A stretch of DNA of 64,000 bases from an uncultured Chloroflexia bacterium (lineage in GTDB: Bacteria; Chloroflexota; Limnocylindria; Limnocylindrales; CSP1-4). The position numbers were made by a program, and so were the translations under genes. The stretch lies in contig CAVPEU010000026.1 of NCBI GenBank assembly GCA_963703575.1, positions 65,850 through 129,849 on the forward strand, written 5' to 3'. Below the pieces are notes generated by a model. The model saw only the letters and a list, made by a program, of their open reading frames with translations, was not told the origin of the DNA and ran no database searches. This document shows positions 1 through 9,246 of the stretch, piece by piece; positions within the stretch are counted from its first letter, which is position 1, and the number at the start of each line of letters is the position of its first letter.

Positions 1-354
1 CGTCGACGAGCGCCTGCGGGTTCGCGGTGTCGGCGGACAGGAACACGTCGATCGGCGCGCCCTGTTCGATCTGCGTCCGGAGGGCCGCCGAGGAGTCGGT
101 CGCGACCACGAAGGTCGTGCCCGGATGGGCGGCCGAGTACGCGTCCGCGAGGTCGGTGGCGGCCACCCGGAGGGATGCCGCGGCGGCGACGTGCAGCTCT
201 GTCCGGCCGGCGTCATTGCCGGTGGCGGCGGGCCCGCAGCCGCCCACCAGGACGGCGGCCAGGACGGCGGCCAGGACGGCGGCCGGGACGCCGATGGCCG
301 CGATCGACCTCCGCCGGGCAGGACGGCGCGCCGCGGCCGGGGCGCCCTCCCCGG
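1..354 (-). CDS. modA: Molybdate ABC transporter substrate-binding protein, 5' part; gene continues beyond the window start
   Basis: The minus-strand translation reads VSPARTGEGAPAAARRPARRRSIAAIGVPAAVLAAVLVGGCGPAATGNDAGRTELHVAAAASLRVAATDLADAYSAAHPGTTFVVATDSSAALRTQIEQGAPIDVFLSADTANPQALVD. This is a lipoprotein-type signal followed by a ModA-like N-terminus. It lies immediately downstream of the TOBE-domain regulator. Confidence 0.6.
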
Positions 355-366
355 TTCGGGCCGGAC

Positions 367-798
367 TCACGATCGCGCCTCGCGGCCCGCGGGGACCTCC
401 ACCACGACGTTCGTGGCCTTGACCATGCACACGGCCTCGTCGCCCACGCGGAGGCCCAGCTCGTCCACCGCCTCCGCCGTCATGAGGCTCACGACCCGGT
501 GCGGCCCCGCGAGCACCTCGACGACGGCGACGACGCGGTCCCGTTCGATCCGGGTGACGATGCCCGCGAACCGGTTGCGGGCGGACTGCGCGACGATCGG
601 CCGGTCCGCGACGGTTCGACGCCGCTCGGCGAGCAGCCGGGTCACCTCCGCCACGGGCACCAGGCGCTGGCCGCCGCGCGAACGGTCCACGCGCAGGCGA
701 CCCGCCGTCTCCCAGCGGCGCAGCGTCTCCACCGTGACGCCGAGCATCTCGGCAGCCTGCCCGACTCGAAGCTGATCCCTGGGGTTGGAGTGGTCCAT
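367..798 (-). CDS. MerR/excisionase-type HTH regulator fused to a TOBE (Mop, molybdopterin-binding) domain; putative molybdate-responsive regulator
   Basis: The N-terminus LRVGQAAEMLGVTVETLRRWETAGRL is an HTH. The C-terminus NRFAGIVTRIERDRVVAVVEVLAGPHRVVSLMTAEAVDELGLRVGDEAVCMVKATNVVV is a TOBE/Mop fold. It sits upstream of modA on the same strand. Confidence 0.75.
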   Translation of the reverse strand: MDHSNPRDQLRVGQAAEMLGVTVETLRRWETAGRLRVDRSRGGQRLVPVAEVTRLLAERRRTVADRPIVAQSARNRFAGIVTRIERDRVVAVVEVLAGPHRVVSLMTAEAVDELGLRVGDEAVCMVKATNVVVEVPAGREARS

Positions 799-862
799 CC
801 CCAGATATTAGCGACTGATCAGCATCCAGAACAGATGGATGGCCGACTTTGGCTCCTGGGCC

Positions 863-1566
863 CTACGTCCCGTCCGGCGCGCTCGTGGGCGAGGCCAGCG
901 CCGGGGTCATCTCGTGGCACAGCACGCAGGTCGAGTCCGCGCGCAACGCGTGGTTGATCGGGAGGGCGCCCACGTCCGCCGCCTGGTGGCAGGTCCGGCA
1001 GGTCAGGTCGGGCCGGTCCGGGTGCGGCTTCTGGGGTGGCGGCAGGGAGGCGGGCTTGTGGCACAGCCAGCAGTTGTCCTGGTTGCGCCCGACCATGCTC
1101 GATGGCAGGTGCGCGACCGATCCGTGGCACTCGAGGCACGGTCGGTTGAGGTTCGCGTGCGCCTGCGTGATCGCCGGGCCGTCCGGGGCCTCCTTGTGGC
1201 AGTTGAGGCATTCGCCCTGGGCGATGCCCTCGTGGCCCGGCGCCTTCCGCCCCAGCTCCTCGTTCGTGTGGCAGACGAGGCACGCCGTCCAGCCCGTCAG
1301 CGGGTGGCCGACGGCCGGGATCGTCTTGAGCCCGGCCGAGCCACCGGAGACATGGCACAGCAGGCAATCGGCGGAGGTCGGGATATGCGCCAGCCCCATC
1401 TCCATGGTCGGCACCGACGGTGACGCCGAGGCCGCGGGGCTCGCGTCGCCGGTCTGCGGCGGCAGGATCTCCAGCCAGTCCGCGATCATCGCGAAGGCGA
1501 GCAGGCCGACGACCAGGATGTTGGCGACGATCAGGGCCCGAAGGCCGAGGTCGACCTTGCTGTTCA
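863..1566 (-). CDS. Membrane-anchored heptaheme cytochrome c, last gene of the hydrogenase operon
   Basis: There are seven CxxCH motifs: CLLCH, CLVCH, CLNCH, CLECH, CWLCH, CRTCH, CVLCH. An N-terminal hydrophobic anchor reads LRALIVANILVVGLLAFAMIADWL. The ATG overlaps the hupD stop (ATGA). Confidence 0.8.
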
Positions 1567-2139
1567 TGCCGTCGCTCCTGTGGGCAGACCCGGTTGCGCG
1601 CGTCGAGCGGAGCCCGAGGCGGCGGCACGGGCATCGAGCGCCGCGAGCTCCCGGCGCGCCGCCGCCACCGCCCGCGGCATGGCGGCCGCCACGCGGGCGG
1701 ACAGCGCCGGGCCGGGCCCGATCTCCCCCACCCCGATCCCGACCACGGATACCGCGGCCGGCAGGACGCCCAGCATCGCCGCCACCGCCAGCAGCTCTTC
1801 GACCCCCCGGCCGCCGCCGCGCGCCGCGCGCCCGGCCCAGCCGCCGGTCGCGTGCGCGTCGCGCCGCGCGGTCACCGTCCCGGCGGGCGCGCCGAGGTCG
1901 GCGTCCACGATCAGCAGCCCCCGCGCGCCGTCGAGGTACCGGAGCAGGTCCAGGCCGAGCGTCCCGCCATCCACGAGGCGGGTCTCCGGCGGCAGGGCGT
2001 CCGGGTCCGCCTCGGCCGGTTCCCGCAGCGCCTCGGCCGGTTCCCGCAGCGCCTCGACCACGCGGACGCCGACCCCGTCGTCGCCGAGCAGGATGTTGCC
2101 GATCCCGATCGCGACCAGGGGCCCGTGCGTGGCGCTCAC
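1564..2139 (-). CDS. hupD: Hydrogenase maturation endopeptidase (HyaD/HupD/HybD family)
   Basis: LVAIGIGNILLGDDGVGVRVVEAL...LVDGGTLGLDLL is typical of the hydrogenase large-subunit C-terminal processing protease. It contains an in-frame 21-bp duplication (REPAEALREPAEA). It is translationally coupled to its neighbours. Confidence 0.8.
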   Translation of the reverse strand: MSATHGPLVAIGIGNILLGDDGVGVRVVEALREPAEALREPAEADPDALPPETRLVDGGTLGLDLLRYLDGARGLLIVDADLGAPAGTVTARRDAHATGGWAGRAARGGGRGVEELLAVAAMLGVLPAAVSVVGIGVGEIGPGPALSARVAAAMPRAVAAARRELAALDARAAASGSARRAQPGLPTGATA

Positions 2140-2927
2140 CCGATCCGCTCCAGGAGCTCGGGGCCGCCATCACGGGACTCCACGACCTCTTCCCGGGTCG
2201 GGAACTTGTAGCCCGCGATCATGCTCGACACCAGCCCGTTGTTCTCGATGTGGTCGACGAGGATGCAGCTGTACACGTGGAACACCGCGATCGCGAGGAT
2301 GGCCCACATCGCCAGGTGGTGCACCAGCCGCAGCAGCTGCGGCCCGAGCAGCTCGCGCAGCCAGCCGAACAGCGTCGCGCCGGGCTGGGCACCGGTGAGC
2401 CCGTCCAGCGCGAACCCGGTGACCACTTCGACGAGCAACAGCGCGAACAGCGCGAGGTACGCGGCCGCGGCCAGCTGGTTGTGCCCCAGGACCTTCGGGA
2501 TCTCCTTGCGGATGAACCCGTAGAAGCCGGCCTGCCGGAACAGCTCCATCGCCTGGTTGCGCGTCGTCGGGATGAACGCGGACCAGCGCGAGAACCGGTT
2601 GCCCGCCAGGAGCCAGTACGTGCGCACGAGGCCCGACAGGAGGAAGGCGAACGCGGTCAGGATGTGGACCGTCCTGATCGTGGACATCACGTTGCCGCCC
2701 GGGGGGATGAGGAACGGGTCGGCGATGTAGCCGCCGGTCAGGCTCAGGATCACGATGCAGGCCGCCGTCACCCAGTGCGTGACGCGGACGGGGATCTGCC
2801 ATACGTACAGGCGGACGCGCTCGTGCGGGCGATCGATGGCGTGGGCGGGCGCACCAACCGCAGTCGCGACGGGTTCGCCCACGCGGACGCGGCGCCGGAG
2901 CCGCAACCTGGACCGGATGGCGGTCAT
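2136..2927 (-). CDS. hupC: Ni/Fe-hydrogenase b-type cytochrome subunit
   Basis: The RLYVWQIPVRVTHWVTAACIVILSLTGGYIADPF motif is HyaC/HupC-like, and the protein has four TM helices. The start is the internal Met MTAIRS, whose ATG overlaps the large-subunit stop. Confidence 0.85.
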   Translation of the reverse strand: MTAIRSRLRLRRRVRVGEPVATAVGAPAHAIDRPHERVRLYVWQIPVRVTHWVTAACIVILSLTGGYIADPFLIPPGGNVMSTIRTVHILTAFAFLLSGLVRTYWLLAGNRFSRWSAFIPTTRNQAMELFRQAGFYGFIRKEIPKVLGHNQLAAAAYLALFALLLVEVVTGFALDGLTGAQPGATLFGWLRELLGPQLLRLVHHLAMWAILAIAVFHVYSCILVDHIENNGLVSSMIAGYKFPTREEVVESRDGGPELLERIG

Positions 2928-4690
2928 CGACGGGCCTCCCCGCCCAGCACGCGGACCTCGATCCCGCCGCTCGGGCGGTCGAGCGCGTGCACCGCGCACG
3001 CGGTGCACGGGTCGAACGAGTGGACGGTGCGCAGGATCTCGAGCGGCTGGGTCGCGTCCGCCACGGGCGTCCCGACCAGCGCCTCCTCCATCGGGCCCCG
3101 GGCGCCCGTCGCATCGCGCGGGGAGGCGTTCCACGTCGTCGCGTCCACCACCTGGTACCGCCGGACGACCCGGTCGCGGATGGTGACCCAGTGCCCGACC
3201 GCTCCCCGCGGGCCTTCGCCCAGCGACCACCCTTCGGCGGTGTCGGGCCAGGTCGACGGATCCCAGCGGCTCAGGTCGGCAACGGCGAGGTCCCCGGTCG
3301 ACAGGCTCGACTTGAGCTCCCGCAGCCAGCCGTCGGCTCGCCTGACGACGATGCTGGTCTCGACGGCCTTGGCCACGATCCGGCCCATCGTGCTCACCAG
3401 CCCGTCCGGCGACATGCCGACGGCGGTCATCGCGGTGCCGAGCGCCGACTGCGCATCGGTGTACCCGTCCGCGTAGGCCACCAGCAATCGCGCGAGCGGT
3501 CCCACCTCCATCGGCCGGCCGTCGTAGCGGGGCGCCTTGATCCAGCTGTACTGCGCCGATCCCTCCAGGGAGGTGACCGGCAGCGCCGGGCCCGAGTACA
3601 GGGGGCTGGTCTCGCCCGCGGCCGGGTGGCGGAGCGTCGCGATACCCTCCTGGTCCGTGTACCAGGCGTTGGCCACGGTCTCCGCCACGGCCTGCTGGTC
3701 CACGCTGTCCACGGCGGCCAGCCCCGGGGCCGCGACGCGGCCGCGCGGCAGGTAGAGCGAAGGCTTCGCACCGTCGCCCTCGGGGAACTCCCCGTAGGAG
3801 AGGAACCGCCCGACCCCGGCCCCGATGCCGGTCCAGTCCGGGTAGGCCTTCGCCAGCGCCAGCACGTCCGGCAGGAACAGCTGGTCAACGAAGGTCAGGG
3901 CGGCGTTCGTGAGGTCGTCCACGATCCTGAGGCCGGCCTCGCTCAGGGCCATGGGTGCGTCGTGCTCCGGCACGGGTGGGTGGGTACCCGGCCCGAGGGG
4001 ACCGCCCCATACCGGCGACAAGGTCATGCCGCCCACGAGATACGACTGCGGGTGCGGGTCCCGGCCGCCCAGCAGCGCATGGATCCGCATGTACCCGCGC
4101 TGCCAGTTCAGGGCCTCGAGCCCGTGCGCCAGGAGCAGCAGGTCCTGCTCCGGCGACAGCCGGTAGGCCGGGTGACCCCAGTAGCCGTTCGCGTACGGTC
4201 CGCCCTGCCCGGACGCCATCGCCGCCGAGAGGCGGTCGCGGATGCCGCTGAAGTAGTCCGGGCTGGACTGCGGCCAGCCGCCGAGCGAGCGAGCGAGCGT
4301 CGAGGTGGCCGCCGGGTCGGCGCCGAGCGCCGCCTCCGCATCGACCCAGTCGGGCAACTGGGCGAGGTAGAACTGGACGACGTGGTCGCGCACCAGCTGC
4401 GTGGCGGCCAGCAGGTTGCGGATGAGCCGGGCGTTGGTGGGGATCGTCACGCCCAGCGCACGCTCGACGGCGCGCACCGAGGCCAGCGCATGCACGCCGG
4501 TGCAGGTGCCGCAGATGCGCTCGGCCACCATCCAGGCATCCCGCGGATCGCGGTTCCGAAGGACGAGCTCGATGCCCCGGAACATCGTGCCGGAGCTCCA
4601 TGCGTCGGTGACCGTTCCGCCGGTGACCTCCGCCTCGACGCGCAGGTGGCCGCCGACACGCGTGACGGGATCGATCGCCATGCGCGCCAT
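2924..4690 (-). CDS. hupL: [NiFe] hydrogenase large subunit (group 1, membrane-bound uptake type)
   Basis: The N-terminal Ni-binding motif is RICGTCTGVH and the C-terminal motif is DPCTACAVH. The true start is MARMAIDPVTRVGGHLRVEAEV (ATG 4690..4688), 1 nt after the small-subunit stop. Confidence 0.9.
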   Translation of the reverse strand: MARMAIDPVTRVGGHLRVEAEVTGGTVTDAWSSGTMFRGIELVLRNRDPRDAWMVAERICGTCTGVHALASVRAVERALGVTIPTNARLIRNLLAATQLVRDHVVQFYLAQLPDWVDAEAALGADPAATSTLARSLGGWPQSSPDYFSGIRDRLSAAMASGQGGPYANGYWGHPAYRLSPEQDLLLLAHGLEALNWQRGYMRIHALLGGRDPHPQSYLVGGMTLSPVWGGPLGPGTHPPVPEHDAPMALSEAGLRIVDDLTNAALTFVDQLFLPDVLALAKAYPDWTGIGAGVGRFLSYGEFPEGDGAKPSLYLPRGRVAAPGLAAVDSVDQQAVAETVANAWYTDQEGIATLRHPAAGETSPLYSGPALPVTSLEGSAQYSWIKAPRYDGRPMEVGPLARLLVAYADGYTDAQSALGTAMTAVGMSPDGLVSTMGRIVAKAVETSIVVRRADGWLRELKSSLSTGDLAVADLSRWDPSTWPDTAEGWSLGEGPRGAVGHWVTIRDRVVRRYQVVDATTWNASPRDATGARGPMEEALVGTPVADATQPLEILRTVHSFDPCTACAVHALDRPSGGIEVRVLGGEARR

Positions 4691-4691
4691 G

Positions 4692-5927
4692 TCAGCGCAC
4701 CTCCGGGACAGCGGGCCCGGCAGGCTCCGGCTCGGGCGCCACGGCCTCGACCTCGGGCGCCACGGCCTCGGCGGGCGCCTCCGCCTCGGCGGGCGCCTCC
4801 GCCACGGCAGCCGCCCCCTCCGGCGCGCCGGCGAGCGCGACCGCAGCCCGTCGATCTGCCGCATCACGCCGTTTTCGGACGACGGTCATGCCCGCGCCAT
4901 GGAGCACCGCAAGACCGCCGACCCCGCCGACCAGCGCCGCGCCGACCAGGTCGGCCGTCAGGCCCGGGAACGCGGGCACCGGCGAAGGGAGCCGCAGGTA
5001 GAACGGGCTCATCGCGTCCCAGAAGCCGGGCATCGTGCAGCCGATGCAGCCGTGCCCGGCGCGCACGGGCCAGCTCGTGCCCTGCGCGAAGCGCTTCGAC
5101 GCGCAGTTGCCGAACGCCTCGGGGCCCTTGCACCCCATCTTGTACAGGCACCAGCCCTTCTGGGCGCCCTCGTCACCCCAGGACCGGACGAACTCGCCGA
5201 ACTCGAAGTGGGGCCGCCGTTCGCACTCGTTGTGGATCAGCATCCCGTACGCGAACAGCGGGCGACGCATCATGTCGGTCGCCGGCCACTCCTTGAACGC
5301 GAGGTAGTGGACGATCGTGGCGACCAGGTTCTCGACGTTCACCGGGCAGCCGGGAAGCGCGATCGTGGGCGTGTTCGAGACGACCTCGCGCAGGCTCGCG
5401 CTGCCGGTCACGCCACCCCCGGCGCCGGGCACGCCTCCGTCGAACGCGCACGCCCCGACCGCGATCGTCGCGAGGGCACCGTTGGCCACCTCGCGCACGA
5501 TGTCCACGAACGGCCGCCCGCCGACCAGGCAGAAGGCGCCGCCGGCCGCGGTCGGGATGCCGCCTTCCACCACGACGACGTACCCGTCCGGGTACCGCTC
5601 CATCGCGCTCGTCAGGGACAGGTCCGTCGCGGCGCCGGCCGGGGCCATCAGCGTCTCGTGGTACTCGAGCGAGAGGATGTCCAGCAGCAGCGAGGCGGTC
5701 GAGGGGTCCGGCGCCCGGAGGAAGGCCTCCGTCTCACCGCCGCAGTCCTGGCCGCGCAGCCAGATGACGGGCAGCCGCGGCGCCGTCTCCACCGCCTTCG
5801 CGATCCGCGGCGCGTACGCGGCCGGCAGGGCAAGGGCGGCCGTCATCGCGGTCGTGAACTGGAGGAATGCGCGGCGGGACATCCCGCGCCGAACCAGCGC
5901 GGCATAGATCCCGTCGTCTGCCATCAC
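4692..5927 (-). CDS. hupS: [NiFe] hydrogenase small subunit with Tat signal peptide
   Basis: SRRAFLQF is a twin-arginine motif. The Fe-S cluster cysteine pattern (GCxGC..., CIGCT) is present, followed by a C-terminal TM anchor and an Ala/Pro/Glu-rich repetitive tail. Confidence 0.9.
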   Translation of the reverse strand: MMADDGIYAALVRRGMSRRAFLQFTTAMTAALALPAAYAPRIAKAVETAPRLPVIWLRGQDCGGETEAFLRAPDPSTASLLLDILSLEYHETLMAPAGAATDLSLTSAMERYPDGYVVVVEGGIPTAAGGAFCLVGGRPFVDIVREVANGALATIAVGACAFDGGVPGAGGGVTGSASLREVVSNTPTIALPGCPVNVENLVATIVHYLAFKEWPATDMMRRPLFAYGMLIHNECERRPHFEFGEFVRSWGDEGAQKGWCLYKMGCKGPEAFGNCASKRFAQGTSWPVRAGHGCIGCTMPGFWDAMSPFYLRLPSPVPAFPGLTADLVGAALVGGVGGLAVLHGAGMTVVRKRRDAADRRAAVALAGAPEGAAAVAEAPAEAEAPAEAVAPEVEAVAPEPEPAGPAVPEVR

Positions 5928-6183
5928 GTCACGCTCGCACGCTCGCCGTGGCGGGCGGGTACCGGAGGCCCCACATCGGCCATGGCGCGATCAGGGGGAC
6001 GCCGGCACCGATGATGGCCGACGCGCGTGTTCCGGCCATGGGCCACAGGTCGCCCGCGGGGATGGCCCAGGGCATGGCCGGGGGGCCGGATGGCAAGGGG
6101 GACCCCGGGCCCCAACGGCACGGCCCACGACGCGACACGGCCCCTCCGCGACGGTCGGAGGGGCCCGTGGATGGGCGGACGGG

Positions 6184-6258
6184 TGGTGAGCCGGCAGGGA
6201 TTCGAACCCTGAACCTAGTGATTAAGAGTCACTTGCTCTACCGTTGAGCTACCGGCCC
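6184..6258 (-). tRNA. tRNA-Lys (anticodon CTT)
   Basis: The reverse complement folds as a cloverleaf: acceptor GGGCCGG/CCGGCTC, anticodon arm AGTGA-CTCTTAA-TCACT, T-arm GGTTCGAATCC, and an encoded CCA. Confidence 0.8.
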
Positions 6259-6315
6259 GAACCGGCGGAAGGATAGCGCACCTCGCGAGCGGCGGGCGCG
6301 ACCCCGTCCCCTCCG

Positions 6316-7825
6316 TCACCCCGGCTGGTTGTCGATCTGCGCCCGCTGCAGCCGGCCGCTGTAGTCCACGTACACGGCCTTCCACTCGGTGAACGTGTCC
6401 AGCGCGGCGTGGCCCGCCTCGCGGTGGCCGTTGCCGGTGTCCTTCCAGCCGCCGAACGGGAGGTGCGTCTCGGCCCCGGTCGTGCCGGCGTTGACGTAGA
6501 CGATGCCGGCCTCGAAGTCGCGCATCGCGCGGAAGGCGGTGTTCACGTCGCGGGTGAAGACGGACGCCGAGAGCCCGTACTTCACCTGGTTCGCGGCCGT
6601 CATCGCCTCCGCGTAGCCGTCGACCGGGACGACGGACAGCACGGGGCCGAAGATCTCCTCCTGGGCGATGGTGGCCATCGGCGCCACGCCCGTGAAGATC
6701 GTCGGGCGGTAGAAATGGCCGTGCTCGAGCCCGGCTCCGGTCGCGCGCTCGCCGCCCGTCACCAGCTCGCCCTCGCGGCGGCCGATGCCGACGTACCGCT
6801 CGACCTTGTCCACCGCCGGGGCGTTGACGAGCGGCCCGACGTCGGTGGCCTCGTCCAGGCCCGGGCCGAGGCGGAGGACCTTCGTGCGCGCCTCCAGCCG
6901 CGCGACCAGGTCGTCGGCCACGGGACCGGTCCACGATCACCCGCGAGCACGCCGTGCAGCGCTGGCCGGCCGTCCCGAACGCCGACCACAGGATCCCGTC
7001 CACGGCGAGGTCCAGGTCCGCGTCCCGGAGCACGACCACCGCGTTCTTGCCGCCGAGCTCCAGGCTCAGGCGCTTGAGCCGGCGTCCGGCGCGCTCCGCG
7101 ATCCCCCGCCCCGTCGCGGACGAGCCCGTGAACGAGATCACGCGCACGTCCGGGCTCTCGACGATCGCGTGCCCCACCTCCGCGCCGGCGCCGGTCACCA
7201 GGTTGACGACGCCGGGCGGGACGCCTGCCTCGTCCATGAGCTCCACCAGGAGGGTGGCGCAGTGCGGCGCGTCGGAGGCGGGCTTGAACACCACCGTGTT
7301 GCCGGTCACCAGCGCGGGCATCAGCTTCCAGCACGGGATCGCCACCGGGAAGTTCCAGGGCGTCACGATTCCGGCCACGCCGATCGGCTGGCGGATGCTC
7401 ATCGCCCACTTGTCCGGGAGCTCGGACGGGACCGTGTCGCCGAACATCCGCCGGCCCTCGCCGGCCATCAGGAACGCGATGTCGATCCCTTCCTGGACGT
7501 CGCCGCGGGCCTCGGTGAGGACCTTGCCCATCTCGCGGGTCATCGCGCGGGCAAGGCGCTCCTTGTGCTCCGCCATGAGCGCGCCGAAGCGATACAGGAT
7601 CTCGCCGCGCCTGGGGGCCGGTGTCGCCTTCCAGGCCGGCAGCGCCTCCTCGGCGGCGTGGATCGCCATGGCGGTGTCCGCGGCGGACCCGGCCTGGAAG
7701 CGGCCCACGATGTCCCGCGTGTCGGCGGGGTTGACGCTGTCGAAGGTCTCGCCGGAGACGCCGTCCACCCAGCGGCCGGCGATGAACAGGCGGAACACGG
7801 GAGCCTCGACGGCGGCCTCGGACAT
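6316..7825 (-). pseudogene. Aldehyde dehydrogenase (NAD(P)+) disrupted by a single-base frameshift near 6925
   Basis: The N-terminal part reads to ...ELGGKNAVVVLRDADLDLAVDGILWSAFGTAGQRCTACSRVIVDRS in one frame. The C-terminal part (V)ADDLVARLEARTKVLRLGPGLDEATDVGPLV... continues in the +1 frame from 6921. The junction gaccggtcccgtggccgac has an extra C in a CCC run. Confidence 0.7.
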
Positions 7826-8009
7826 CGGACAACCTCGCGTGACGGATGGGTCGACGTGCGGGTCGATCGTCCGGCGCACGGGGCACCCGCGTCAAACGCC
7901 GGGGGCCGTCGTCTCCCCGGCACCCGAGCCGATGAAGGCGTCACGCCCGTGGAGGCGTCAGACCGGTGGACGCGTCAGACCCGCTCGAAGGCCATCGCGA
8001 CGGGCCGCG

Positions 8010-9246
8010 TCAGGCCCGCTCGAAGGCCATCGCGACGGACCCACCGCCCCCCAGGCACAGGGTGGCCATGCCGTACCGGCCCTCGCGGCGGCGCAGCTCG
8101 TGGAGCAGCGTCGCGACGATGCGCGCGCCGCTGGCCCCGATCGGGTGCCCCAGCGCGATCGCCCCGCCGTTCACGTTCACCTTCGACCAGTCGAAGCCGA
8201 GCTCGCGCCCGTCCGCCAGGACCTGGGCGGCGAATGCCTCGTTGATCTCGATCAGGTCGAACGCGTCCGGCCCGAGGCCGGTCCGCGCCTCGAGCCCGCG
8301 GACGCCGTCGACCGGCGCCAGGAACAGCCACCTGGGCGTGACCTCGGCCTGCGCGTACCCGACGATCCGGGCGAGCGGCTTGAGGCCGTACCGCTCGACC
8401 GCCCGCTCCGAGGCGACGACCGTGGCCGCCCCGCCGTCGGTGATGCCCGGCGCGTTGCCCGCGGTGACCGTGCCGGTCGTGGCGGTGCCCCGGTCCTCGC
8501 CGGTCGGGAGGTCGAACACGGGCGCGAGCCGGGCCAGCGCCTCCGGGGTGGTGTCGCGGCGGGGGCTCTCGTCGGTGCTGATGACGGTCTCGCGGCCCTT
8601 CGCGTCGCGGATGGTCACCGGCGCCATCTCGTCGTCGAAGCGGCCGGCGTCCTGGGCCGCGATCGCATTCCGGTGGCTCGCCAGCGCCAGCGCGTCCTGG
8701 TCCTCGCGGCTCACCCCGGCCTTGATCGCCACGCGCTCGGCGTGGGTGCCCATGTGGCAGTCCTCGATCGAGCACCACAGGCCATCGAGCACGGTCGAAA
8801 TCCTCCAGTGTCCCGTTGCCCAGCCGGTAGCCGAAGCGGGCCTTGCGCAGGAGGAACGGCGCCTGGTTCATCGACTCCATGCCGCCCGCGACGTACAGGT
8901 CGCCGTCGCCGGCCTTCACCGAGGCTGCCGCGAACATGATCGCCTTGAGCCCGGAGCCGCAGACGCGGTTGATCGTGGTGGCGGGCGTCGTGTCCGCGAG
9001 GCCGGCCCGCAGGAGCGCCTGGCGTGCCGGGGCCTGGCCCGCGCCGGCCTGCAGCACCTGGCCCATGATCACCTCGTCGATCGGCGCCTCCGCCGGCAGC
9101 CCGGACCGGGTCACCGCCGCGCGGATGGCGGTCGCGCCGAGCTCCACCGCGGGCACGCCCGCCAGCGCGCCCCCGAACTTGCCGATCGGCGTGCGCGCCG
9201 CGCTGACGAGATAGACATGGCCGCTGGGGCCGCTCGTGAGGTCCAT
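8010..9246 (-). pseudogene. Acetyl-CoA acetyltransferase (thiolase) disrupted by a frameshift near 8795
   Basis: The N-frame [26 protein letters not shown]...[11 protein letters not shown]...[10 protein letters not shown] then loses the thiolase sequence. The C-frame (8792 downward) continues [25 protein letters not shown]...[25 protein letters not shown]...[15 protein letters not shown]. Confidence 0.7.

Follow-up and report, generated by a model that had tools for sequence, protein, structure and literature searches.

Why should the operon of a membrane-bound [NiFe] uptake hydrogenase end in a gene for a multihaem c-type cytochrome? In enzymes of this class, HupSL oxidises H2 at the outward side of the cytoplasmic membrane, and three Fe-S clusters pass the electrons to the b haems of HupC and from there to menaquinone. 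The question is raised by a 64,000-nucleotide stretch of DNA from an uncultured Chloroflexia bacterium (GTDB lineage Limnocylindria; Limnocylindrales; CSP1-4; assembly GCA_963703575.1, contig CAVPEU010000026.1, positions 65,850 to 129,849), referred to here as the window. Its G+C content is 73.5%, and its first 6 kb carry five co-oriented genes on the minus strand: hupS, hupL, hupC, hupD and a gene for a heptahaem cytochrome c. As described below, the feature is real, strongly conserved and clade-specific.

A first-pass annotation, made from the sequence of the window, had described hupS (with a Tat signal), hupL, hupC and hupD as a complete cytochrome-b-linked group 1 module. It had added that the module is followed, with an ATGA overlap at hupD, by a cytochrome with one N-terminal transmembrane (TM) helix and seven CxxCH motifs. 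Both descriptions were borne out, the first with all its genes, motifs and coordinates (Table 1). HupS carries an RRAFLQF Tat motif, a C-terminal TM helix and a cytoplasmic tail rich in Ala, Glu and Pro. HupL contains the motifs RICGTCTGVH and DPCTACAVH, together with a C-terminal extension for cleavage by HupD. HupC scored 138.6 bits with the model TIGR02125 (cut-off, 121.5), and an alignment to 4gd3_A matched its four haem-ligand His residues to those of Escherichia coli HyaC. With its Tat signal, Fe-S ligands, HupL motifs, cytochrome b and endopeptidase, the enzyme is a group 1 membrane-bound [NiFe] uptake hydrogenase.

The hupS and hupL genes are separated by 1 nt (TGA-c-ATG), and the remaining junctions are overlaps: ATGA between hupL and hupC, GTGA between hupC and hupD, and ATGA between hupD and the cytochrome gene. 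Because all of these stop and start codons overlap or sit 1 nt apart, the five genes form one translationally coupled unit. Consensus scans of positions 300-6400 for promoters and terminators found nothing, a result that is uninformative in DNA of 73% G+C. Using TRF, we also observed a perfect 21-bp tandem duplication within hupD at 2008-2056, which encodes EALREPA twice. At the 3' end of hupS (4731-4808), tandem repeats of 18-21 bp encode the Ala/Glu/Pro-rich cytoplasmic tail of HupS.

The cytochrome consists of a short basic N-terminus, the TM helix, a linker and a haem domain, with acidic residues just after the helix. By the positive-inside rule, the predicted topology is N-in/C-out, as c-type haem attachment needs. 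There are exactly seven CxxCH motifs, at residues 68, 96, 120, 144, 166, 190 and 214, and these contain all 14 Cys residues of the protein. Exactly 14 His residues are present, seven of them in the CxxCH motifs and seven more at positions 61, 88, 112, 137, 153, 182 and 206. Because all seven motifs and all seven further His residues are invariant in an alignment of 32 orthologues reaching down to 62% identity, we infer that the protein binds seven bis-His haems, which would be packed at a density of the c3/c7 type. Not one CxxCH occurs in any other candidate open reading frame (ORF) of the 64-kb window, so that the seven in the cytochrome are not a product of chance.

The membrane anchor is conserved as well. 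Of the 27 positions of the TM helix, 9 are the same in all orthologues, Asn16 (mid-membrane), Met27 and Trp31 among them. In the linker, whose length varies across the orthologue alignment, the corresponding number is 1 of 22. This difference suggests that the helix packs specifically against another membrane protein, and the conservation of the helix speaks against its being a passive anchor or a signal peptide that is cleaved off. A structure model based on the 32 close orthologues was unusable, with a predicted local distance difference test (pLDDT) score of 49; the score was 77.6 when a 64-sequence alignment that included paralogues was employed.

The first-pass annotation had named the linkage between hupD and the cytochrome as a point to check in relatives. 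A search of about 5.8 billion proteins returned 458 homologues of the cytochrome. Among the best 120 of these, one carried an automatic NapC-like label and all the others were unnamed or labeled 'hypothetical protein'. Organism names were few, all of them from the Chloroflexota (Chloroflexi/Chloroflexota bacterium, Candidatus Limnocylindrales), and none was that of a named isolate. We then examined the linkage in two directions. In the forward direction, one genome per species was scanned for the cytochrome, which gave 32 loci, all from metagenome-assembled genomes of Chloroflexota. The genes hupS-hupL-hupC precede the cytochrome gene in every locus whose contig reaches far enough upstream, and hupD lies directly before it in 31 of the 32, often ending 4 nt into the cytochrome gene. 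The same operon layout was present in the precomputed gene calls of RBG_16_72_14. In the reverse direction, metagenomes were scanned with HupC. This yielded 67 loci, 39 of which had at least 750 nt downstream of hupC. The cytochrome was present in 36 of these 39 loci and in all close ones (36/36); the three without it have a distant HupC (48-57% and about 31% identity). The linkage is thus kept wherever the sequence suffices to see it, and the cytochrome proved neither unconserved nor independent of the operon.

Six loci (L064, L069, L074, L083, L102 and L106) have no hupD, and their cytochrome gene directly follows hupC and overlaps its stop codon. Because these loci keep the cytochrome after hupC, its tie is with the structural genes rather than with the protease. 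They form a sub-clade that has lost hupD from the operon, in which the cytochrome ORF starts with MSAT and the fifth haem motif is CTLCH instead of CWLCH. The MSAT start looks like a relic of the hupD start that overlapped the hupC stop, reused by the cytochrome. Beyond the cytochrome gene, the genes differ among relatives, and the modE/modA pair found in the window is confined to the closest ones; the cytochrome is therefore the conserved last gene of the operon. Median identities to the window proteins were 65% for the cytochrome, 66% for HupC, 62% for HupS, 58% for HupL and 47% for HupD. The cytochrome evolves as slowly as the structural subunits of the hydrogenase.

Two loci had unusual layouts. 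In L028 (CAVQVT010000005.1), the operon appears twice in tandem, with two hupL genes and two cytochromes. A downstream displacement of hupC in this locus was considered and rejected in favor of a tandem operon duplication or an assembly repeat. In L041 (ENA contig_11942), hupS, hupL, hupC and the cytochrome gene are each broken over several frames and hupD is missing; this locus is either a pseudogene cluster or a poor assembly.

To which group of [NiFe] hydrogenases does the enzyme belong? The best PDB relative of HupL was 3myr_B from Allochromatium vinosum, a group 1e enzyme (550 bits), followed by Hyd-5/Hyd-1 (group 1d). The features of group 1d are absent: both supernumerary-Cys positions are Gly in the window (CGGE; GACAFDGG), and in relatives they are mostly Gly, the first varying between Gly and Ala only, with Cys in none. 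Group 1e, the Isp type, does not fit either, given that hupS and hupL are adjacent and that HupC, the membrane subunit, is a cytochrome b of PF01292. As the operon contains no Isp1 or Isp2 gene, the comparison with Isp-type enzymes drawn in the first-pass annotation finds no support. Group 1l has been described in a preprint as exclusive to this Chloroflexota lineage. Assignment to group 1l/1h was rejected on the basis of the Tat signal, the cytochrome b and the adjacent S and L genes; the group 1h structure 5aa5 was a weak match to HupL (111 bits, on the C-terminus).

The traits of group 1f that can be read from motif, protein length and gene order, on the other hand, are present, namely, a Cys replacement in HupS, a HupS of 411 amino acids (aa) and the gene order S-L-C-D. 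In an alignment to 1h2a_S, the proximal-cluster motif of HupS (residues about 60-68; window positions 5730-5750, minus strand) reads C-G-G-E-T-E against C-x-G-C-x-E, so that the second Cys is replaced by Glu. Among loci L002-L032, the orthologues that cover the motif have Asn, Glu, Asp or Ser at this position, never Cys. The alignment implies a three-Cys proximal site, which would hold either a [3Fe-4S] cluster or a [4Fe-4S] cluster with an O/N ligand. Replacement of the same Cys by Asn or Asp has been reported in group 1f of Roseiflexus, Geobacter and Frankia (PMC5364354); we have not seen Glu or Ser at this position reported in the group 1f literature examined. In Frankia, group 1f HupS proteins have 410-420 aa and the gene order is hupS-hupL-hupC-hupD-hyp (PMC11879354). 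By motif, HupS length and gene order, the enzyme looks group-1f-like, pending phylogeny. Group 1f has been described as polyphyletic and little studied; the roles suggested for it are defence against oxidative stress and the aerobic or sub-atmospheric oxidation of H2 (PMC6896113, PMC6776052). The enzyme of Geobacter has been linked to the former (PMC6896113), and that of Acidobacterium ailaaui to aerobic H2 scavenging (PMC6776052).

The operon differs from known group 1f operons at its end. Those of Frankia (synton-3), Roseiflexus and Geobacter (Hya) share with it the S-L-C-D order, the Tat signal, the long HupS, the cytochrome b and the Cys replacement. However, they continue with hypA or other hyp genes and without a c-type cytochrome, whereas the window and its close relatives have the TM-anchored heptahaem protein in that place. 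The nearest relative without a cytochrome, L098, has the proximal motif C-A-G-N-T-E and carries hypA exactly where the cytochrome gene would be. By this comparison of gene content, the cytochrome is a lineage-specific addition to the operon.

The 863-1567 product had been recommended for comparison with heme-motif and fold databases, and only the motif half of this comparison gave matches. Two Pfam models scored above cut-off, both over residues 116-171: PF14522 (Cytochrome_C7), with 37 bits against a cut-off of 24.8, and PF09699 (Paired_CXXCH), with 29.9 bits. A search of PDB sequences with the orthologue profile gave no significant match; the best E values were 0.009, for an unnamed cytochrome c, and 0.68, for the 'cytochrome c7-like' chain 8k9e_A. 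PF02085 stayed below its cut-off (19.4 against 22.9 bits), and the NCBIfam models for DmsE/MtrA (decahaem), HmcA, TmcA and GSU2203 gave 19-29 bits against cut-offs of 114-400. By the tests run, the cytochrome falls outside the c3, c7, NapC/NrfH, DmsE/MtrA, HmcA and ActA families.

The protein nevertheless shares several features with the class III (c3/c7) cytochromes: the predicted bis-His ligation, the haem density and the match to the c7 model. In Desulfovibrio (periplasmic hydrogenase/TpIc3, Qrc/Nhc) and Geobacter (the c7 protein PpcA), H2 is oxidised outside and the acceptors are bis-His, low-potential multihaem cytochromes. Qrc is a TpIc3:quinone oxidoreductase (PMC8076601). Haem spacing is alike in these systems and in the window cytochrome, at about 24-27 residues per haem. 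However, c3 and c7 are small, soluble proteins with three to four haems, encoded outside cytochrome-b hydrogenase operons, whereas the window cytochrome has 234 aa and seven haems, is tethered and is encoded beside HupC.

Other systems resemble the locus in its pairing of membrane subunit and cytochrome. Geobacter CbcL/MtrH/MtoC likewise combine a cytochrome b of the PF01292 type with a multihaem c domain that faces outward. CbcL joins a HydC/FdnI-type dihaem b to a multihaem c and is an inner-membrane gateway from the quinone pool to outward cytochromes (PMC6295460). It is, however, one polypeptide with an N-terminal haem c domain and without a hydrogenase, while the two parts are encoded by separate genes of a hydrogenase operon, both in the window and in all its relatives; the analogy is one of architecture. 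A multihaem c subunit beside a quinone-interacting membrane subunit, as proposed here, is also seen in ActA of alternative complex III (ACIII) and in the cytochrome c subunits of other NrfD complexes. The structures of ACIII show ActA anchored by an N-terminal TM helix. ActA has five haems (PMC8076601) against seven in the window cytochrome, whose putative partner is a cytochrome b and not NrfD. MmcA of Methanosarcina acetivorans, described as a conduit for intracellular and extracellular electron transport (PMC10153276), is a heptahaem c co-encoded with a membrane energy-converting complex, Rnf, but the partner is another one and the organism belongs to another domain of life. A limited literature search brought up no paper in which the operon of a cytochrome-b-linked [NiFe] hydrogenase also encodes a multihaem cytochrome c, which is absence of evidence only.

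The haem domain belongs to a wider family of modules. A profile-free search of 1.84 billion cluster representatives identified 343 relatives of the cytochrome. Among them are paralogues of 250-300 aa, at about 40% identity, with the same TM-linker-haem plan but eight CxxCH motifs. They are encoded in an operon with a LuxR-type response regulator, a multihaem cytochrome (204-254 aa), a 4x[4Fe-4S] protein and an NrfD-type subunit; the TM-octahaem gene ends this operon and overlaps the NrfD gene. The FeS subunit reaches the cut-off of the DsrO model (206 against 200 bits), and the NrfD subunit is closest to QrcD/DsrP. Two proteins (P0142 and P0135) carry both parts in one chain, with the octahaem joined to the C-terminal end of NrfD via an extra TM helix. 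The paralogue operon looks like an undescribed cytochrome c:quinone module similar to Qrc, DsrJOP and ACIII. Because the paralogues follow NrfD or are fused to it, the module appears to be a haem 'wire' that can be reused and that habitually accompanies quinone-interacting membrane subunits; in the hup operon, HupC is the equivalent subunit.

Two further observations concern this family. In L038, a hypA gene lies about 2 kb upstream of the paralogue operon. Units related to the haem domain also occur as 15-26 tandem copies in giant multihaem proteins (P0128, P0145, P0148, P0159 and others); P0128, which has 3274 aa, contains up to 26 repeats of the module.

What could such a wire do in a hydrogenase operon? 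We give a probability of about 0.5 to the reading that the cytochrome serves the group-1f-like hydrogenase as a fourth redox subunit, or as an obligate partner, and provides an outward, quinone-independent branch. From the gene structure, the haem-ligand inventory, the topology signals, the translational coupling, the conservation and the linkage, we propose a physical association, a direction of electron flow and a set of acceptors as follows. HupSL, exported by the Tat pathway, would oxidise H2 at the outer face of the cytoplasmic membrane, and electrons would pass through the three Fe-S clusters of HupS and the dihaem HupC to menaquinone. The conserved N-terminal TM helix would keep the cytochrome beside HupC/HupS, and the flexible linker would hold out seven bis-His haems, presumably of low potential, as a compact chain at the outer face. 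This wire may exchange electrons with the outward end of the complex, either at the distal cluster of HupS or at the outer haem b of HupC. Its passing them on to further redox proteins that face outward would constitute the quinone-independent branch. The first-pass annotation had suggested that electrons might have a second outlet, to an acceptor in the periplasm or outside the cell; this may reasonably be inferred, but a route through the quinone pool or a role as an electron reservoir is also conceivable.

The proposal also offers a reason for the tether. This lineage of soils and sediments has been reported to lack outer-membrane genes, to possess cytochrome c oxidases and to be mostly aerobic or facultative, and it is probably monoderm. 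The cytochrome would be tethered because a monoderm cell cannot retain a soluble periplasmic c3/c7 pool, and the tethered wire would be the monoderm counterpart of the pool that serves the periplasmic hydrogenases of Desulfovibrio and Geobacter.

Several points weigh against an outward branch of this kind. No acceptor gene is linked to the locus, the genes past the cytochrome being variable between relatives, and no other cytochrome c, oxidase or reductase gene was found among the window ORFs scanned. The cytochrome gene follows hupD, in a slot usually held by accessory genes. The only candidate fusion of HupC and the cytochrome (P0170, from locus L041) was a frameshift artefact with only three CxxCH motifs in frame, and there is accordingly no Rosetta-stone evidence for an association with HupC as such. 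The haem-free model of the cytochrome had no match among PDB structures, and haem-to-cluster distances are not assessable from it. Lastly, if an outward branch ended at a reductase that faces outward, that step would conserve no energy.

A more far-reaching version is rather unlikely. In it, HupSLC and the tethered wire would form an enzyme of four cofactor-carrying subunits that bypasses quinone on the way to outward partners, or the wire would be an electron buffer for O2 tolerance replacing the [4Fe-3S] cluster. The partners in a quinone bypass would include cytochrome c oxidase, peroxide- or oxygen-detoxifying enzymes, the paralogous NrfD-octahaem complex and extracellular acceptors.

The linkage of the genes might also reflect a shared pathway and not a complex. 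The cytochrome would then be a stand-alone quinol dehydrogenase, analogous to NapC/NrfH/CymA or ImcH: HupC would reduce menaquinone, and the cytochrome would re-oxidise menaquinol and feed outward reductases or extracellular acceptors. A single N-terminal TM helix followed by an outward multihaem domain is indeed a NapC/NirT-like architecture, a quinol site could include the conserved Asn in the middle of the helix, and one JGI autoannotation reads 'nitrate/TMAO reductase-like tetraheme cytochrome c subunit'. The NrfH model TIGR03153 gave a weak partial match as well (E 2.3e-5), but with 24.5 bits it stayed far below its cut-off of 134.2, and the TM-proximal haem lies outside the matched part. 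NapC/NrfH-type enzymes hold haem 1 at the membrane surface, whereas the first CxxCH of the window cytochrome lies about 34 residues beyond the helix, across the variable, low-confidence linker. This spacing and the seven haems set the protein apart from the NapC/NirT/NrfH/CymA type. Furthermore, the paralogues are appended or fused to NrfD, which already has a quinone site and next to which a second quinol site would be redundant. We regard a quinol dehydrogenase as unlikely. The haems could instead act as an electron reservoir that stores electrons from H2 and returns them via HupS for the reduction of O2 at the active site, or passes them to enzymes that detoxify peroxide or oxygen. Such a role fits the group 1f traits and the 'oxygen-protecting' role proposed for this group, and the lineage is mostly aerobic or facultative. 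HupS lacks the 6-Cys [4Fe-3S] cluster of group 1d, and another electron buffer would be useful to it. These arguments are purely circumstantial, however; the 1f-like operon of L098 and the group 1f operons of Frankia do without the cytochrome, and no peroxidase or oxidase gene is linked. A reservoir or O2-protecting function seems unlikely for it.

The direction of flow might also be the opposite, with the haem wire gathering electrons from outward donors and passing them through HupC to menaquinone in the manner of Qrc, so that the hydrogenase complex would be a shared entry point. The paralogue operons, with their DsrO-level FeS protein (206 against 200 bits) and QrcD/DsrP-like NrfD, lend some weight to this idea, and Qrc-type complexes are cytochrome c:quinone oxidoreductases (PMC8076601). 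Yet no donor is linked, and within the orthologous group the gene is found only with hup genes. Bis-His haems of the c3/c7 type would also be poised near the H2 couple, which makes the hydrogenase the obvious donor. We therefore consider reverse flow very unlikely. That the ORF is an unrelated neighbour or non-functional is effectively refuted: all 14 haem-ligand His and all 14 Cys residues are invariant, and the linkage holds in 32 genomes and in all 36 close metagenome loci, whereas the genes on either side of the operon vary.

The flanks of the operon agreed with the first-pass annotation, which had placed it between tRNA-Lys and a modE-like/modA pair; ARAGORN, Pfam and translation identified these features (Table 1). 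The start of modA overlaps the stop of the modE-like gene (GTGA), and in L033 an SBP_bac_11 gene occupies the place of modA. The modE-like gene was detected downstream in only 8 of the 32 genome loci, by tblastn in L001-L005, L013 and L031 and by gene calls in L033, the last two being the same contig. The modE-like gene is a flank outside the conserved unit. Between the stop codon of the cytochrome gene and the ATG of the modE-like gene lies a spacer of 66 nt (799-862, minus strand), which is locally AT-richer and contains a TAATAT hexamer with its end 8 nt upstream of that ATG. This hexamer could be the -10 box of a leaderless modE-like/modA transcript, in which case the cytochrome would be the last gene of the hup transcript. 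The absence of hyp genes from the window also held up: a Pfam scan of 30 further window ORFs, which was not exhaustive, found no hyp gene, no ccm gene and no other cytochrome c among what were ordinary housekeeping genes.

Upstream of the operon, an aldehyde dehydrogenase gene (about 6215-7879, minus strand) is split over two frames by an apparent frameshift near 6920, and an acetyl-CoA acetyltransferase (thiolase) gene (about 7975-9246, minus strand) by another near 8795. Their orthologues in L033 and L021 are intact. Either the split genes are pseudogenes or the breaks are indel errors from long-read assembly. With at least two frameshifted genes, the window may stem from a long-read assembly that is prone to errors, although no such break affects the hup genes.

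Table 1. Features of the hup locus, its flanks and the paralogue operons. Coordinates are window positions except in the last row; AF2, AlphaFold2; HTH, helix-turn-helix.
Feature	Coordinates	Strand	Description
hupS	4692-5927	-	Small subunit, 411 aa; PF01058 (Oxidored_q6) and PF14720 (NiFe_hyd_SSU_C); TIGR00391, 398 bits
hupL	2924-4690	-	Large subunit, 588 aa; PF00374 (NiFeSe_Hases), 600 bits
hupC	2136-2927	-	Dihaem cytochrome b membrane subunit, 263 aa; PF01292 (Ni_hydr_CYTB), 99.8 bits
hupD	1564-2139	-	Maturation endopeptidase for the large subunit, 191 aa; PF01750 (HycI); TIGR00072, 91.8 bits
Heptahaem cytochrome c gene	863-1567	-	234 aa; last gene of the operon; PF14522, PF09699; 458 homologues
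N-terminal TM helix	1466-1546	-	Residues about 8-34; AF2 helix 3-34, pLDDT 84-98
Variable Ala/Ser/Pro-rich linker	1400-1465	-	Residues 35-56; 1 of 22 positions invariant; pLDDT below 50
Haem domain	908-1399	-	Residues 57-220; about 24 residues per haem
tRNA-Lys (CTT)	6184-6258	-	Upstream flank of the operon; ARAGORN
MerR-HTH + TOBE (Mop) regulator, 'modE-like'	367-798	-	66 nt downstream of the cytochrome stop; Pfam/NCBIfam
modA, 5' part	1-370	-	Molybdate-binding lipoprotein, lipobox LVGGC; runs off the window start; translation
Paralogue operons	L037 1897-5730; L038 4767-8897; L039/L040 5013-8813; L042 5881-10040		On related high-G+C contigs

Limnocylindria-type Chloroflexota (Ellin6529, RIF-CHLX, 'Eulabeiota') are among the dominant uncultured bacteria of soils and aquifers, and the hydrogen metabolism of this lineage has so far been discussed mainly in terms of cytosolic-type group 1h/1l enzymes. 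Our conclusions come from comparative genomics throughout, and the cytochrome may prove to be no more than one additional electron-transfer subunit, with modest consequences for physiology. If the proposed partnership is true, the operon encodes an undescribed subunit composition for a cytochrome-b-linked [NiFe] hydrogenase, and it shows how a cell without an enclosed periplasm substitutes for a soluble c3/c7 pool. Should the wire be a quinone-independent outlet or a buffer for O2 tolerance, it would represent a new way of wiring a [NiFe] hydrogenase. The proposed partnership would also give a testable clue to the role of group 1f, in the form of a branch to oxygen and peroxide defence, to respiration or to extracellular acceptors.

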